This document shows, piece after piece, positions 14,295-52,578 of a DNA stretch of 64,000 bases. The number at the start of each line of letters is the position of its first letter. Within the stretch, counting starts at the first letter, position 1. The notes beneath the pieces are model-generated. The model saw only the letters and a list, made by a program, of their open reading frames with translations. It was not told where the DNA came from and did no database searches. The DNA comes from a virus (lineage: Duplodnaviria > Caudoviricetes), in IMG/VR virus record IMGVR_UViG_3300033066_002300, positions 1-64,000 of that record. One strand, 5' to 3'. Both the position numbers and the translations under genes were made by a program.

Positions 14295-14323
14295 TTATAC
14301 GTTTTAAAAAGAAAAAGGTTTCA
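14295..14323 (-). promoter_or_regulatory. ECF-sigma-like promoter TGAAAC-N16-CGTATAA
   Basis: exact consensus; heads the Zn-finger/tRNA-like cluster. Confidence 0.75.
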
Positions 14324-31907: not shown

Positions 31908-31920
31908 TTATTTTATTTTT

Positions 31921-32082
31921 TTAATTTAAGTCTTTCCAATTATCAACATATGGAGGTCTAACACCAAAATGTATTATTTTTACGTTAATTTGATGTTTAT
32001 CACATATTCTGCATGTACGTTCTATTTGTTCGTGATATCACCATATATGTATATTACGTATTAAGAATTTTAAAAATCTCAT
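31921..32082 (-). pseudogene. 54-codon small ORF with an internal TGA
   Basis: MRFLKFLIRNIHIW*YHEQIERTCRICDKHQ...; TGA at 32038-32040. Confidence 0.5.
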
Positions 32083-32086
32083 AATA

Positions 32087-32251
32087 TCAATCTTTTAATT
32101 TTAAACTATAAATATAAAATCCTGTACCAATACACAAACAAATAAATCCAATATTTAATTGAACTTCCGTATTTGTAAATAACATTCTTAGTCCCATCAA
32201 AATAATAGCAATTAATAACATAGTTATGGTAAATTTGTCAATTTTTTTCAT
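32087..32251 (-). CDS. small 2-TM membrane protein (not in track)
   Basis: MKKIDKFTITMLLIAIILMG... Confidence 0.55.
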   Translation of the reverse strand: MKKIDKFTITMLLIAIILMGLRMLFTNTEVQLNIGFICLCIGTGFYIYSLKLKD

Positions 32252-32290
32252 AATTTAATAATTATGTTTTTATTTTTAATTTGGCTACTG

Positions 32291-32368
32291 GTACTAACAC
32301 AACCCTTGCTCAATTTGCGAATTACATAACTGCTAAACAAACTAAGCAAGGCTCGATAACGTTAGCAG
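32291..32368 (+). repeat. attC-like recombination site 1
   Basis: gtacTAAC...ccttgct...agcaagg...GTTagcag imperfect palindrome. Confidence 0.65.
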
Positions 32369-32373
32369 TAATA

Positions 32374-33144
32374 CTACATTTGTTCTCCGAATAAACTATT
32401 TTGTTCATAACCTTTTTCTTTTCTTTTTTCCTCCCCTTTTTCAGAAACAAATCTATCAGTAGCAATTTGATAATAATTTTCATCTATTTCAAAACCTACA
32501 AATTTTCTATTTGATTTTAAACAAGCAACGCCAGTACTTCCACTTCCCATAAATGGGTCTAAAACAACATCATTTTCTTTGCTTGAATTTTCAATAAGTA
32601 TTTTCATCAATTCGATAGGTTTTTCGCTTGGATGTTGTTTGTTTTTTACATTTGGTATATTTAAAACGCTGCGAGTTCCACAATTATTTATCTTATTAGC
32701 TTTCCCTTTATAAGCAAATATTATATATTCGTGACTATCCATGTAATACATATTTGTTATGCAATTATCTTTTGCCCAAATAAGAGTTTTAAATACATTA
32801 AACTTCGCTTTTTCTAATTCGTTTAACATTTCCTTTAAGCACTTATTATTAGTCATAACGTAAAAATGACCACCATCTTTTAAAACATTATAACATAAAG
32901 GTAGCCATTCTGAAAATTTAATATCATTAAACTCAAAGCCTCCGTTACCATTTATAAATTTATCTTCTTTTAACATTCCGCCAGTCCCTCCGCTATTACC
33001 TCTTTTAGTTGTTTTATATGGTGGGTCGGTAACTATTAAATCAATACTGTCGCTTTCTACTCCTTTAAGTAATTCAACACTGTTCCCTTGTTTTGTATTT
33101 ATCATATTTTTAATTTTTTCAAAATTATTTTTGCCATCGCTCAT
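32374..33144 (-). CDS. site-specific DNA methyltransferase (N6-A/N4-C, beta class)
   Basis: VTDPPY, HPSEKP, VLDPFMGSGSTG, GFEID. Confidence 0.93.
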   Translation of the reverse strand: MSDGKNNFEKIKNMINTKQGNSVELLKGVESDSIDLIVTDPPYKTTKRGNSGGTGGMLKEDKFINGNGGFEFNDIKFSEWLPLCYNVLKDGGHFYVMTNNKCLKEMLNELEKAKFNVFKTLIWAKDNCITNMYYMDSHEYIIFAYKGKANKINNCGTRSVLNIPNVKNKQHPSEKPIELMKILIENSSKENDVVLDPFMGSGSTGVACLKSNRKFVGFEIDENYYQIATDRFVSEKGEEKRKEKGYEQNSLFGEQM

Positions 33145-33200
33145 TTTTAAATTCTTTTTAGTTTGTACTTCTAATTAAGTTTTGTGGTATAAATCCCTAC

Positions 33201-33258
33201 TACCTGTAACAGCACCTATGCGGCATTAAAACGACCGCCAATCTGCAAAACGTTATAC
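33201..33258 (+). repeat. attC-like recombination site 2
   Basis: ctgTAAC-agcaccta-tgcgg...ccgc...tgc-aaaac-GTTatac; shares arms with site 3. Confidence 0.7.
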
Positions 33259-33265
33259 GCAAGCA

Positions 33266-34000
33266 CTACATTTCGTTTCCAAAGAGAGTTTGCGGTTCAA
33301 AATTTTTATTAAAATCTGCCCTCCTTTTCATTTTTTCAAAATGATTTGGGTCTTTCTCAATCGCTATAAATTGTCGGTTGTTCTTTAAGCAACTTTCAAT
33401 TATAGTTCCGCTTCCACCAAAGGGGTCAATACAAATATCATTTATATTACTGCTGTTTAAAATTAAGTGGTCATATAGTTCAACAGGTTTTTCTGACGGA
33501 TGTATTTTATTACCCCTTATTCCTTTTATACTTATCAATGCTGTGCTTCCCATATTGTTTATTTTTCTCGCTCCGCCTTTTCTGAATAAAACAATAAACT
33601 CAACATTCTGCATATAATATCCAAGCGGTGTGTGCATACCCTTATCCCAAACCAAAATATTTAGAACTTTAAACCCCACCTTTTCTCCATCTGATATTAT
33701 TTGTGATAAATTTTTCTGATTACTCATACAATAAAAGTGGGTACTGTTTTTCATAACTCTAAATAATTCATCCATCCATCTGTAAAAGGGTGGTATTTCA
33801 AACATAATGCCGCTTTCTTTTTCTTCTCTTGTAATGGTGTTCATTTCTAATTTCTTTTTTAAAGTATCAATTTGCAATTGAGCATGTTCAATTAAAAAAG
33901 CATTACGCTCCATATTAATTCTCATTTCAAGCTCTGCTTGATAGTTGAGTTTAAGTTCTTCCCAAATTTTTAATTCTTTTAAATCATCGTATCTACACAT
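33266..34000 (-). CDS. chimeric or truncated beta-class DNA methyltransferase lacking DPPY
   Basis: HPSEKP, IDPFGGSGT and AIEKD present; N-terminal ~60 aa is an unrelated coiled coil. Confidence 0.75.
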   Translation of the reverse strand: MCRYDDLKELKIWEELKLNYQAELEMRINMERNAFLIEHAQLQIDTLKKKLEMNTITREEKESGIMFEIPPFYRWMDELFRVMKNSTHFYCMSNQKNLSQIISDGEKVGFKVLNILVWDKGMHTPLGYYMQNVEFIVLFRKGGARKINNMGSTALISIKGIRGNKIHPSEKPVELYDHLILNSSNINDICIDPFGGSGTIIESCLKNNRQFIAIEKDPNHFEKMKRRADFNKNFEPQTLFGNEM

Positions 34001-34018
34001 ATTTTTTAAATTTATTTG

Positions 34019-34375
34019 TTATTCTCTATTATCTGACCAATGTGGTAAAGGGCAAAATCTACCAGTTTTTTTTGGTTCACCATCTTTTAATTGCGGACAT
34101 TTTGAATGATTACACTCGCCATCAGCTCCACTCTGACAAGAAACTAATTCATTTTCATCTTTAAATTCATCATACTTTAAATTAAGCGTTAACTCATTAG
34201 CACTTTGAGCGTCATTATCAGTATGCGCTAATGTTAAGTTTTTAAACTTACCAATACCATCAATAATAGTCCATTCATTCTCATCAAGAGTATTATTAGC
34301 TTTAATATGTAAATTAATCCAATCCGTTAGATGCTTGTAAATAGCATTATTATCTTTTTTGTTTTCTTGTGACAT
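34019..34375 (-). CDS. hypothetical protein with Cys/His-rich C-terminus
   Basis: C....DGEC.H..CPQ..D.EP...GR.CPL. Confidence 0.6.
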   Translation of the reverse strand: MSQENKKDNNAIYKHLTDWINLHIKANNTLDENEWTIIDGIGKFKNLTLAHTDNDAQSANELTLNLKYDEFKDENELVSCQSGADGECNHSKCPQLKDGEPKKTGRFCPLPHWSDNRE

Positions 34376-34456
34376 AATTTATTTATTGCTTTTTACAATT
34401 GTTTTTAATTCATCATTAAAGTCTATAATTACTTATCTATGAGTTTTTCCTCACAA

Positions 34457-34488
34457 CAAAGATATTCATAAATTTTGACACTTACAAA
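34457..34488 (-). promoter_or_regulatory. Bacteroidota housekeeping-type promoter TTTG-N20-TATCTTTG
   Basis: matches -33/-7 consensus. Confidence 0.6.
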
Positions 34489-34590
34489 TTGTTTTTTTTA
34501 TTAAGTCAGTATATTTCAACTTAACAATTAAATTTCTAATAAATCTATTACAATTTGGTCGTTTGACAATTAATTTTTATATTTCATATT

Positions 34591-34755
34591 ATGAAAGAAG
34601 AAGAAAAAAAAGAAAAAACACATATTAGTATTGTATTAGACCCAGAAATACTACAAAAGTTAGAAGATGGAAATTACAATAAATCTAAACTTATTGATTC
34701 TTTATTGGTAAAATACTTTAAAAAAAGAGAAAAAATCAATAATTCAAAAAAATAA
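34591..34755 (+). CDS. small RHH protein (54 aa, not in track)
   Basis: HISIVLDPEILQKLE...NKSKLIDSLL. Confidence 0.6.
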   Translation: MKEEEKKEKTHISIVLDPEILQKLEDGNYNKSKLIDSLLVKYFKKREKINNSKK

Positions 34756-34845
34756 TCATACTGATAATCAGTATTTTATATAATAAAAGTCGCCTAAAAG
34801 AGATTTTTATTTTTTATCTCATATTTATAATAAACAATAAAAAAC

Positions 34846-35022
34846 ATGGGAAGAAAAAAAATTACAACAGAAAAGAAGAAGCAAAAGTTATCTATAACCA
34901 TTTCTTTGAACAATGCTCAAAAGCTAAATGAGCTTGAATTTACCAATAAGTCTAAATTAATTAATTGGCTATTAAGAGAACATTTTGGACTTAACCAGGA
35001 AGGAGGTCAAAATGAAAACTAA
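34846..35022 (+). CDS. small RHH protein (58 aa, not in track)
   Basis: KLSITISLNNAQKL...NKSKLINWLL; TATTTAT upstream. Confidence 0.6.
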   Translation: MGRKKITTEKKKQKLSITISLNNAQKLNELEFTNKSKLINWLLREHFGLNQEGGQNEN

Positions 35023-35395
35023 AAAATTGACCACCACAATTAACAGCAGATGTATCTATAAAAGCAAAAAGCTATCATTGCATACAAAAAACATCTTATA
35101 CAAAGTAGTTACAGATATTATCTGCGGAAATGAGGAACCAAGTTTCTTATATATGCAAGCAAATATATTTACTGTATGGCCAGAAGATATTGTTTGGAAT
35201 GCAATAGATGAATTGTTATCTAATGATATTATGTACATTGACTTCAATGATGAAGACGAAGAATTAGAGGAAGATGAATATCAAATGGAAGAATTAGTAT
35301 TCAATCCAGAATTTCTTGAGAAGATATATCCATCATTCGGTTCATGCCCTTGCTGCAATCCTGCGCCAGTTAATTTTAATGTAAACTATAATTAA
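35012..35395 (+). CDS. acidic hypothetical protein
   Basis: ATG 35012 after GGAGG; CPCC tail. Confidence 0.55.
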   Translation: MKTKKLTTTINSRCIYKSKKLSLHTKNILYKVVTDIICGNEEPSFLYMQANIFTVWPEDIVWNAIDELLSNDIMYIDFNDEDEELEEDEYQMEELVFNPEFLEKIYPSFGSCPCCNPAPVNFNVNYN

Positions 35396-35397
35396 TT

Positions 35398-36324
35398 ATG
35401 TCAAAACTAAAAAAGCATAATATTTTTTTAGAAGAAATTAAACTGCACCATCCTGAGTTAAAAGTTTTAGGAACCTACATTAATAGTCAAACAAAAATAT
35501 TGTTGGAAGATAATTTTGGAATACAATATCTATTTAGACCAAATGATTTGCTTAAAGGTTCAAAACCATCTATAAATTCATCTGTCAATAAAAATTTAGC
35601 TTTTAAAATTAAAGCGGAACAAATACATGGCGAAAAAACATATGATTATAGTCAAGTAAATTATATTACAAATAGAGATAAAGTAAAAATTGTATGTAAT
35701 AAATGTAATTTAGCATTTCTTCAAAGACCAACCAGACACTTATCTGGAGATGGATGTCCTCAATGTGGATTTGTTAAATCACAAATATCAAATCAACAAA
35801 TATTAAATCAAAGAGCAATTAGTATTGTTAAAGATATCTTTTTAAAGCATAACAATAAAATAAATTGTGATAAACTTTTATACAAAGGAAATAAAGCAAA
35901 AGCCATTTTTGGATGTAATGTGAAACCAGAACATGGTTATTGGATGGCAACACCTAATGATATATTAGATGGTTGCGGATGTCCATTATGCAATTCTTCT
36001 AAAGGAGAATTAGAAGTAGAATCAATACTTATAGAAAAAAATATTTTTTTTATAAAAAATAAAACTTTTACTGGATGTAAGCATAAGAGCTTATTGAAAT
36101 TTGATTTTTATTTACCAAAATATAATATCTGTATAGAATATGACGGTTTACAACATTTCAAACCGATTTCATTTTTTGGTGGAAATGAGCAATTAAAAGA
36201 GAACAAAAAAAGAGATAAAATAAAAAACAAATTCTGCAAGAATAATGGTATATTCTTAATAAGAATACCTTATACAGAATTTAATGAAATAAGATATATT
36301 TTAAGCTCATTATTAAATTTATGA
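35398..36324 (+). CDS. homing-type endonuclease (Zn-finger repeats + Vsr/DUF559-like PD-(D/E)XK domain)
   Basis: YDYS.V.Y, GCP.C repeats; SKGE, FDFYLP, IEYDG.QH, D..KN.FC, LIRIPY. Confidence 0.85.
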   Translation: MSKLKKHNIFLEEIKLHHPELKVLGTYINSQTKILLEDNFGIQYLFRPNDLLKGSKPSINSSVNKNLAFKIKAEQIHGEKTYDYSQVNYITNRDKVKIVCNKCNLAFLQRPTRHLSGDGCPQCGFVKSQISNQQILNQRAISIVKDIFLKHNNKINCDKLLYKGNKAKAIFGCNVKPEHGYWMATPNDILDGCGCPLCNSSKGELEVESILIEKNIFFIKNKTFTGCKHKSLLKFDFYLPKYNICIEYDGLQHFKPISFFGGNEQLKENKKRDKIKNKFCKNNGIFLIRIPYTEFNEIRYILSSLLNL

Positions 36325-36393
36325 AGCAATTTCTTTTGCATCATTTATTGTATATTTTTTGCCTGCGTAATTAACGGCGCTAATTGTTCCCAT
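36319..36393 (-). pseudogene. orphan 5' stub of the kinase gene (MGTISAVNYAGKKYTINDAKEIAS*)
   Basis: Matches kinase N-terminus MAYLNVVNYAGAKYKIDLNREIAR; its stop overlaps the endonuclease 3' end. Confidence 0.8.
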
Positions 36394-51221: not shown

Positions 51222-51552
51222 ACTCTTTTAATTTATTTTCAATTATTTCAAAAACTTCTTTTGGTTCCAACTTGCTGCCAAATTCTCTTGAAGACCCTCC
51301 GATAATATCGGAACCACCCCAGCCATTTTGCATAGTTAATCCTTCTTTAGAATTCAAAGATACAAAAAAATCTTTAATTGGGAAAGGAATATATCTACTT
51401 TTTTTTCCGAGTGAATAAACATAATTCCCATCAGGTCTCTTAGCAACAACAGATAAGAAAGCATCCATTGTGCCTGTTGAAAATAAAGCATATCTTGCAG
51501 AACTTCCTCCAATTTCATTTACAACTTTAAAGGTTGGCATTAATTCTGATGT
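51202..51552 (-). pseudogene. C-terminal part of the DHH-like phosphoesterase split by the cassette
   Basis: TSELMPTFK...GWGGSDIIGGS continues in frame from RHEILF once 51553-51963 is removed. Confidence 0.75.
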
Positions 51553-51963
51553 TAGCAGCAAGTTTTTAAACTTTTTCTACCACCGCACAATTTTCAATAA
51601 TAACATCCCTTAAATGCTTTGCCCCTTCAATTCTATTTTTATGAGATTGAATTTCTTTATCAAAAAACATATTGTCAATATCTTCATTGTTTGGCATTTG
51701 TGATTTTAAATATTCATCCATCGCTTCAAAAACATTTTTGCGATATTTTCCAATTACATAATAAAAATCACCTAATTTATCTTCTAATATTTTTTCTTTT
51801 AAAGTCATATTAGGTTGTTTATTACTCTCTGTAATCATTGTTCTTGTTATTTCCATTTTTTATATTTTTAGTTATTAATTCCTACGCTCAAAAAGTTTAA
51901 AAACCAGACTGCTAACAGCACCTAAATCGCAACTCCGCTACGCAGCGTTTAGTTGCAAACCGT
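51551..51963. mobile_element. 411-bp integron-like gene cassette inserted at a GT dinucleotide
   Basis: left end GTTAGCAG; right end CTGCTAAC-hairpin-cGT; circularisation rebuilds an attC-like palindrome. Confidence 0.8.
51566..51856 (-). CDS. cassette-borne hypothetical protein
   Basis: 96 aa; AMDEY and GAKHLRD phage-type motifs. Confidence 0.65.
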   Translation of the reverse strand: MEITRTMITESNKQPNMTLKEKILEDKLGDFYYVIGKYRKNVFEAMDEYLKSQMPNNEDIDNMFFDKEIQSHKNRIEGAKHLRDVIIENCAVVEKV

Positions 51964-52578
51964 AAAAAGAATTTCATGTCTTGTATCTAAAGCTATTTCA
52001 CCTCCCAATCCCATTATGTATTGATTTATTCTAGCACATACACTTTCAATGCAAGCTAACATAGCTTGAGCATCTGCATTTGATAACACACCAGTTTTTC
52101 TCATATTTGTATACGGTTCAAATATCCAATTATGCTGCGCTAATAATTTTTCGTCAAGGCTCATGGGAAATGCTCCACCTGTAATATCTAATCTTGAATC
52201 AAGTGCTAATAGCCTGTTAAATGAAGGATTACTATTAACTCCTTCAAACATATGATAATTATCTAAAATAAAAACCGCAAGACAAGTGTCTTGGTCACAA
52301 TCATTTATATATACATTTGCAAAAGGTTTATCATCTTTTCTAAATGATTTATATAACCCTCCTTTAATTGCCATATATACTTGGTCTGCTGTAGACATTG
52401 TGGCCTCACGCACAACCTCATGATGATGGTCGAAATTTATGTGTTTAGTAGCTTCAGAAAAATTGGGAGCTCCTACTACATAACCGTCTAAGGCGATTGA
52501 AAGTTCTGGACTATTTTCCAAAAATTCTTGCCAAGAAAGACTTTTTCTGGGTTCTGCTATTAAGTTTATTGTTTTCAT
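51949..52578 (-). pseudogene. N-terminal part of DHH-like phosphoesterase (interrupted)
   Basis: IALDG, NFDHH, NDCDQD; last residues VCN* come from the cassette. Confidence 0.7.

Follow-up and report, generated by a model that had tools for sequence, protein, structure and literature searches.

A short, partly decayed array of probable mobile gene cassettes with hairpin sites and DNA methyltransferase genes in a phage genome

Integrons, which are regarded as bacterial, are characterized by the integrase IntI, whose special insertion reads the extrahelical bases of the folded attC site. Small gene modules between inverted recombination sites are also found in the pdif/dif modules of Acinetobacter plasmids and in integrative mobile elements exploiting Xer (IMEX), which use Xer-type tyrosine recombinases; the dif-type sites are 28-bp duplexes with a 6-bp spacer. 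In this study, we analyzed the first 64 kb (64,000 nt; hereafter, the window) of the 95.9-kb IMG/VR virus record IMGVR_UViG_3300033066_002300, in which attC-like hairpin sites flank DNA methyltransferase (MTase) genes near 32-34 kb. An earlier note, made from the sequence alone, had proposed that the phage gains anti-restriction methyltransferases here as an integrase-free cassette array resembling a cluster of attC sites lacking an integron integrase (CALIN). Our results indicate that mobile gene cassettes probably make up the region, in a short array that has partly decayed and that belongs to an integron-like system of phages with probable Bacteroidota hosts. The system is best regarded as an integron-like variant and not as a canonical integron or a true CALIN.

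CALINs have been reported in virulent phages by Qi et al. (2023; PMC9892861), and the CALIN of the Polaribacter phage P12002L encodes two methyltransferases. The phage sites were treated in that study as ordinary integron attC sites, and the program HattCI called P12002L_attC1 an attC. Of the six phage sites assayed, P12002L_attC1 alone was not recombined by IntI1; attC2 was recombined. IntegronFinder 2.0 detects complete integrons only seldom in Bacteroidetes. Phages are known to carry orphan anti-restriction DNA methyltransferases (Murphy et al. 2013, as cited in PMC9892861).

The record has a G+C content of 29.7% and an estimated completeness of 31%, and its minus strand carries nearly all genes. 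Along this strand, the array comprises an open reading frame (ORF) at 33266-34000, a 121-nt spacer, the ORF 32374-33144, a 122-nt spacer, and a 54-aa ORF at 32087-32251. Site 1 (32289-32370, minus strand) extends, on the plus strand, from TAAC at 32295-32298 to GTT at 32361-32363, and site 2 (33201-33261, minus strand) from TAAC at 33207-33210 to GTT at 33252-33254. The two GTTs are spaced 891 nt apart, so that the coordinates and spacing of the 891-bp unit described in the earlier note were borne out. The complete beta-class enzyme described within this unit was confirmed as MTase1 (32374-33144, minus strand), a 256-aa N6A/N4C DNA methyltransferase that matches the whole PF01555 profile (3.9e-43) and shows the beta-class motif order, with VTDPPY at residues 38-43 followed by DPFMGSGST at residues 196-204. 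The second methyltransferase reported to abut site 2 does match PF01555 (ORF 33266-34000), but it is a truncated remnant without DPPY.

A third site (site 3; 51907-51971) lies 51.9 kb into the window, and the stop codon-to-GTT distances of 13, 14, and 15 nt at the three sites agree with the range of 13-15 nt noted before. Sites 2 and 3 share TGCAAA[AC]CGT and the exact 12-mer TAACAGCACCTA, which has only these two copies in the 96 kb, as the similarity previously described would lead one to expect; at site 3, however, the GTT found in the other two sites is replaced by GTA, and the cleaved box reads TAC. The motif CGCTCA, which had been assigned to two cassette leaders, is present at 33138 but overlaps the start codon of MTase1 and occurs five times on the plus strand of the window, and it constitutes weak evidence. 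The proposal that the outer arms are mismatched because the sites are hybrids of neighboring cassettes held true. The minus strand of site 1 reads TACTGCTAAC, then, across the joint, G, an imperfect palindrome, and GTTAGTACC; the hairpin and the GTTA side belong to the downstream 54-aa gene, and the TAAC side belongs to MTase1. The ends of the MTase1 cassette are likewise mixed (GTTACAGG and CTGCTAAC). The crossover would fall between plus-strand G32361 and T32362 at site 1 and between G33252 and T33253 at site 2.

Both strands of the sites were folded and compared with shuffled sequences. Site 1 folded significantly on the minus strand (z -4.2, through G.T pairs) and not on the plus strand (z -1.0). 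Generic scans for AAC...GTT hairpins, performed by constrained folding energy or by counts of spanning pairs, yielded as many matches in shuffled genomes. Structure alone therefore proves nothing in this AT-rich genome. These scans, which also missed some true P12002L sites, were abandoned in favor of a family model.

The family model, a covariance model designated R1, was built from an alignment of 24 diverse sites from other contigs and contained no window sequence. RNAalifold detected no consensus structure on the MAFFT alignment of the sites, in which stems of different site classes do not line up. We therefore named the structure by hand and counted the paired positions, using slid and shuffled controls. 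The named structure was 77.7% paired, compared with 67.7% in shuffles (0 of 500 reached the observed value) and 33-58% when slid, and 13 pairs of the 24-site alignment showed compensatory change. AAC and GTT were invariant in all 24 aligned sites, and sites 1 and 2 have TAAC...GTTA; the flanking RYYY and RRRY positions match the attC consensus only partly (GTTAGCA). The stems of the family are 11-20 bp long with covariation, and the box-to-box lengths fall into classes of approximately 46, 59, 85, and 122 nt. No extrahelical bases were seen in the folded family sites. Their two arms are equally long; positions that form G.T pairs when one strand folds are A.C mismatches when the other does, and the sole asymmetry is a spacer of 5 nt versus 2 nt beside the outer boxes.

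R1 was then applied, unfiltered, to all 96 kb of the record. On the minus strand, it ranked site 1 first (34.9 bits, E 1.6e-4), site 2 second (29.4 bits, E 2.2e-3), and site 3 fourth (23.7 bits, E 0.03); an AT-rich hairpin ranked third (24.1 bits). The significance of the sites thus rests on comparison, since a model without window sequence places all three in its top four. Site 2, with degenerate arms and the family loop TCGTTTTAAT, resembles the sites of two other contigs (L049 and L050) and P12002L_attC1. All three sites are thereby shown to be members of a large, conserved family of covarying YAAC...GTTA hairpins that occurs in presumed Bacteroidota phages. Outside the window, at 86439-86511 of the record (L098:2640-2712), two convergent genes are separated by a nearly perfect 21-bp AT-rich hairpin whose flanks are AAC and GTTAG; this hairpin probably serves as a bidirectional terminator and is no cassette site.

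To define the cassette borders, we compared the three spacers with 36 viral loci encoding MTase1 homologues (50-64% identity); the loci were gathered through methyltransferase homology and a leader motif. Short spacer matches fell just 5' of the start codon and just 3' of the stop codon of the homologues. The common architecture on the sense strand consists of xxxYAAC, the joint, G(K)TT, an imperfect palindrome, a leader beginning (N)GTTAGCAGTAGTACGGATTTAAACCACAAATG, ATG and a methyltransferase ending in LFGxxM*, and TATTACTGCTAAC, the joint, and N. A search with the leader motif found this architecture in 37 viral contigs and 7 contigs of metagenome-assembled genomes (MAGs). In the 37 viral contigs, the similarity opens directly after the upstream YAAC, with any sequence preceding it, and closes at CTGCTAAC or ...TACTGCTAAC, with G, A, or T as the following base. 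The earlier note had named as decisive whether homologues carry the same flanks beside different neighbors and whether homology breaks at the boxes; both were observed.

The 5' end GTTAGCAGTA is the exact reverse complement of the 3' end TACTGCTAAC. Cassettes with other genes possess complementary pairs of their own (GTTAGGTT with AACCTAAC; GTTATGCGTAGTGG with CCATTACGCATAAC; GTTATGTGGC with GCCACATAAC; GTTATGCCCA with TGGGCATAAC). Such cassette-specific complementarity is expected if each cassette can be circularized, its two ends pairing as the outer stem of a single hairpin site. In a class of sites approximately 137 nt long, the downstream ORF begins within the hairpin loop and reads through GTTA; the exchange point is therefore the AAC 5' of the hairpin. 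The hairpin is inherited with the ORF downstream, and the unit, on the sense strand, starts immediately behind an AAC and extends to the following AAC. On the plus strand of the window the exchange point becomes G/TT (the slash marking the joint), which delimits an MTase1 cassette of 891 nt at 32362-33252 on the minus strand. On the sense strand, the site 2 hairpin comes first, followed by the leader GTTACAGGTAG, then the ORF, and finally TATTACTGCTAA as the 3' end. All three window sites lie on the minus strand, as do the cassette ORFs.

The long sites have a further property. In L015:4688-4823, L054:2787-2924, L073:8674-8811, and L092, a methyltransferase ORF starts inside the loop of a long site, and the 3' arm together with the GTTA box supplies approximately the first 20 codons of this ORF (..P.L.I.DVSG..). 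The long site thus doubles as coding sequence. Among 151 genomes sampled from Bacteroidota, the phylum to which a Chitinophagaceae MAG belongs, 13 contained solo sites of approximately 137 nt. Seven Bacteroidota loci (L100, L102-L105, L107, and L108) carry such sites in chromosomal intergenic regions, with complementary outer boxes (e.g., CTGCTAAC...GTTAGCAG). The loop of the L100 site repeats ACCACAAATG-N6-CGGAGAAC, the motif of the methyltransferase cassette leader, and this repeat could bind an accessory protein.

We then examined the MTase1 cassette in public metagenomes. Runs from nine studies (river, sludge, wastewater, and freshwater) contain parts of the window, and Logan contigs from four runs were compared with it. 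In contigs from four studies, sequence 99-100% identical to MTase1 sets in at position 32360 or 32361, preceded by 2, 23, or 26 unlike letters. One contig carries the hairpin of site 1 (32267-32363), followed by 481 unlike letters, and many short contigs begin at 33251 or 33252; loose ends just ahead of that position carry differing hairpin sequences. In public metagenomes, the exact MTase1 cassette thus has other neighboring sequence. Contigs of runs X3 and X8 covered MTase1 but gave little or no cover of the phage genes on either side of the array; because a gap in cover proves nothing, this difference was not used as evidence of a cassette without the phage.

In five other phage contigs (L086, L088, L089, L091, and L092), a tyrosine recombinase of 266-278 aa starts, on the same strand, 34-55 nt after the final ...YAAC of the array. 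Two further recombinase homologues lie on contigs of 76 and 242 kb (L109 and L112); R1 placed five sites upstream of either gene and no site downstream. The array end therefore adjoins a 266-278 aa Xer-type recombinase (PF13495 and PF00589) in 7 of 7 loci examined. Its best family matches were XerA, XerD, XerC, and the integron integrase, all under the cut-offs: TIGR02249 scored approximately 150-158 bits against a cut-off of 265, and NF011946 was also below its cut-off. The recombinase aligned end to end with XerA and in two pieces with VchIntIA, with approximately 48 residues absent at the IntI-specific insertion. More than 7,500 homologues were found in metagenomes at E<1e-20, under the JGI name XerD. 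In all seven loci (e.g., L086:1140-1191), the junction from the last TAAC to the recombinase is hairpin-less and AT-rich and reads TAAC/TATTATATATA or a close variant, which makes it a candidate attI-like site. The 96-kb record itself yielded no tyrosine recombinase (no PF00589 match), consistent with an integrase-free array as first proposed; that label cannot be asserted, however, because the record is only 31% complete. Several virus records that carry such cassettes and are estimated to be 100% complete also contain no tyrosine recombinase.

The window contains a second element of this kind. A solo cassette of 411 nt (51552-51962, minus strand), comprising site 3 and a 96-aa ORF, sits in a phage gene at TTA/C, a non-standard site. 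When the flanks were joined by eye, the neighboring ORFs formed one frame (...HEILFT/SELMPTFKVV...), and the ends of the cassette, GTTAGCAG and CTGCTAAC, are complementary. The continuous frame shows that this cassette splits a gene.

Read along its sense strand, a cassette opens with C and G, continues with an imperfect hairpin, GTTAnnnnnn, and the leader, and closes with a single ORF and nnnnnnTAA; neighboring cassettes are joined at AA/C (G/TT on the plus strand of the window). A tyrosine recombinase would bind the folded single strand and cut AA/C 5' of the hairpin, and the ORF-sense strand would be the reactive strand. The cutting would be done by the Xer-type recombinase that adjoins the arrays; for the present phage it would be supplied in trans, because none is encoded in the available part of the genome. 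Cassettes would leave as circles and enter other sites, as integron cassettes do, and the circle junction of the MTase1 cassette would read ...TACTGCTAA/CGTTTTGCAG.... MTase1 would shield the phage DNA from host restriction enzymes; an anti-restriction role of the cassette methyltransferases, as first suggested, is a reasonable supposition, and a partner endonuclease of MTase1 was not seen nearby. More broadly, we give somewhat better than even chances to a self-contained cassette-shuffling system that is distinct from integrons (a sister lineage or convergent) and found mainly in presumed Bacteroidota phages. In such a system, a short Xer-type recombinase without the IntI insertion would act on hairpins without extrahelical bases, with the genes on the reactive strand behind their own leader; anti-restriction methyltransferases and small accessory genes would be traded, and recombinase-less phages would be served in trans at co-infection.

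Alternatively, the hairpins and their flanks might be regulatory modules (a terminator plus a promoter or 5' untranslated region) that accompany phage methyltransferase genes, with genes swapped by homologous recombination in the conserved leaders and 3' ends and no dedicated recombinase. This explanation, which we regard as unlikely, would account for the leaders of 60-90 nt that are more than 90% conserved before methyltransferases only 25-50% identical and for hairpins located between same-strand genes, where terminators would be, and R1 also matches the probable bidirectional terminator at 86439-86511. It is difficult to reconcile with homology that ends at one dinucleotide without fading, complementary ends that are specific to each cassette, hairpins without a T-run, the entry of the 51.9-kb cassette into coding sequence without homology to it, and a tyrosine recombinase at the array end in every locus examined. 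That the sites are canonical attC sites, forming a true CALIN served by a classical IntI of the host, is very unlikely. The AAC and GTT boxes, imperfect inverted repeats, variable center, and length of 50-140 nt do resemble attC, HattCI accepted P12002L_attC1, and the adjacent recombinase has sub-threshold integron-integrase matches and the PF13495 N-terminal domain. The same recombinase, however, aligns continuously with XerA, is approximately 48 residues short at the VchIntIA insertion, and scores far below the TIGR02249 cut-off; moreover, bulged extrahelical bases were not seen in the equal arms with their G.T or A.C positions, the ORFs lie on the strand opposite to that of canonical cassettes, IntI1 did not recombine P12002L_attC1, and complete integrons are rare in Bacteroidetes. 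Finally, there is next to no likelihood that the sites are chance hairpins or plain terminators sharing a 12-mer by coincidence, as the abundance of generic AAC...GTT hairpins in shuffles and the lack of a significant fold at site 2 might suggest. This reading was refuted by flanks conserved in dozens of contigs, by the family model that places the three sites in its top four, and by contig breakpoints at the sites.

Several observations weigh against an interpretation as a mobile cassette array. Recombination has been demonstrated for no site of this family, and the nearest published site, P12002L_attC1, failed the IntI1 assay. For site 2, neither strand folded more stably than its shuffles (z about 0), and only approximately 8 of 12 positions in its arms can pair. 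The 54-aa ORF cassette has no recognizable 3' end and the MTase2 cassette no 5' end; with two of three cassettes damaged, the array may no longer be mobile as a whole. Because repeats interrupt Logan contigs, the breakpoints in the metagenomes show differing neighbors and not the chemistry of the joint. The loci were found through methyltransferase homology and the leader, which biases the apparent share of methyltransferases among the cargo. In addition, homologous recombination could exchange cassettes through their long conserved leaders and 3' ends.

The remaining features of the array are described as follows. MTase2 (33266-34000, minus strand) matches PF01555 from profile position 32 (3.7e-26) and resembles MTase1 from residue approximately 63 onward, with 38% identity; its N-terminal approximately 62 aa are unrelated. 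It lacks the first approximately 65 methyltransferase residues, including DPPY, and retains motif I only, and the homologous part ends near 33853. MTase2 thus appears to be a dead, 5'-truncated remnant. A joint from 33853 to 33013, with 30 letters between, was present in three metagenome runs, which suggests that intact relatives of MTase2 exist elsewhere and that the copy in the window was truncated near 33853. The hydrophobic 54-aa ORF behind site 1 (32087-32251, minus strand) represents the third cassette of the array. No R1 match to a 3' site of this cassette was found in 31908-32086, and a stretch at approximately 31935-31965 (AAC..GTTAGACC), which also has no R1 match, was considered as the cassette end and not called a site.

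The conserved leader of the MTase1 cassette (GTAGTAGGGATTTATACCACAAAAC...), which extends from the GTTA box to the start codon (33145-33206, minus strand), corresponds to the motif found in the 37 viral and 7 MAG contigs, where it precedes methyltransferase genes of differing sequence. Reading by eye revealed no convincing match to a Bacteroidota -33/-7 promoter in the leader. The 3' end of the methyltransferase ORF (AAAAAAGAAAAGAAAAAGGTT), which encodes a tail rich in Lys and Glu ahead of LFGxxM*, is reverse-complementary to the polypyrimidine run AACCTTTTTCTTTTCTTTTTT of the common leader (window 32400-32440; L010, L041, and others), and the pair provides a second long inverted repeat for cassette ends.

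The array lies within a 4.4-kb island (31908-36393) inserted in the 5' end of a kinase gene and absent from the two phage relatives obtained from a protein collection (L094 and L095, with kinases 82% and 65% identical). A close DNA relative of the region was not found in the phage collection, and viral contigs searched with the kinase and an AAA protein contained no relatives of the phage. In the two relatives, the kinase follows a PP2C-like gene directly or past one 98-aa ORF, and the whole of 31908-36393 is therefore an insertion. A kinase stub of 22 codons (36393-36326) is 90.5% identical to the start of the L094 kinase (aligned over 36399-36326), and the intact kinase carries a recoded start. 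The island is composite, with plus-strand endonuclease-like genes (DUF4379/DUF2726 at 35398-36324) in addition to the cassette array.

Scans of the window for tRNA genes and Rfam families detected nothing. Outside the window, at approximately 70-95 kb of the record, high-G+C 50-nt windows with tRNA-like sequence (e.g., GGTTCGAA...) are clustered, and the cluster probably marks a dense region of tRNA genes. A plus-strand motif, TTATACG-N(about 14-16)-AAAGTTTCA, recurs in the window at 14295, 24168, 28047, 42728, 48359, 49932, 55847, 60276, and 63540. Its gene-strand form, TGAAAC...CGTATAA, immediately precedes start codons of minus-strand genes, a position that makes a class of phage promoters likely.

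The findings place the logic of integrons, namely single-gene cassettes, hairpin sites, and a G/TT crossover, in phages and beside a plain Xer-type enzyme. If this enzyme does move the cassettes, recombination of a folded strand would proceed without the IntI insertion, which bears on the origin of integrons from Xer recombinases, and phages would own a dedicated gene-exchange platform, stocked with methyltransferases, for the restriction arms race. Standard tools would miss the system because they require the IntI-specific domain. The present locus adds the exact MTase1 cassette beside other neighbors and, in the same genome, a cassette that has split a gene. The breadth of the site family, the Xer-type recombinase, and the mirrored gene orientation are not described in PMC9892861; in an incomplete library, no account of the system other than that of Qi et al. 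(2023) was found, and none of such a recombinase or layout.

Compared with the P12002L CALIN, the locus shares the site family, with six R1 matches flanking the N6_N4 methyltransferases of P12002L, as well as the TCGTTTTAATG loop of P12002L_attC1, which is found in site 2 of the window. The virulent phage P12002L likewise has methyltransferase cargo and no integrase; its site attC2, which did recombine, is different in appearance. The CALIN-like character proposed in the earlier note is therefore retained in the attC-like sites and the methyltransferase cargo and is lost in the gene strand, the Xer-type recombinase of other loci, and the failure of IntI1. A CALIN has at least two attC sites less than 4 kb apart with no integrase nearby; here, two sites lie 891 nt apart with no recombinase in the 96 kb of a record that is 31% complete, but they lack two of the features of attC. 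The sites do have the AAC and GTT boxes, imperfect inner repeats, a variable center, and a length of about 57-141 nt, and are not located 3' of the cassette ORF on its sense (top) strand.

As in Xer-dependent modules, small gene modules lie between inverted sites that an Xer-type recombinase would serve. In the phage family, however, a hairpin of 40-120 nt separates the boxes, so that the substrate is implied to be a folded single strand, and a dedicated recombinase gene lies beside the array. MTase1 resembles the orphan phage methyltransferases as a stand-alone beta-class N6A/N4C enzyme and differs from them in that its gene is packaged as a site-specific mobile cassette. Similar to integron cassettes, each cassette carries one gene and a foldable imperfect-palindrome site with AAC and GTT boxes and a G/TT crossover; arrays show hybrid outer arms, cassette ends are complementary as if circularized, insertion occurs at secondary sites, and a tyrosine recombinase stands at one array end beside a hairpin-less attI-like junction. 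In contrast to integrons, the recombinase of the phage arrays is a Xer-like protein of 266-278 aa without the IntI insertion, extrahelical bases were not seen, the outer boxes pair over 10-14 nt, and some ORFs start in the site loop. The cassette genes, moreover, read toward the recombinase on the AA/C strand and have their own conserved leader instead of a Pc promoter, and the family occurs mainly in phage contigs.

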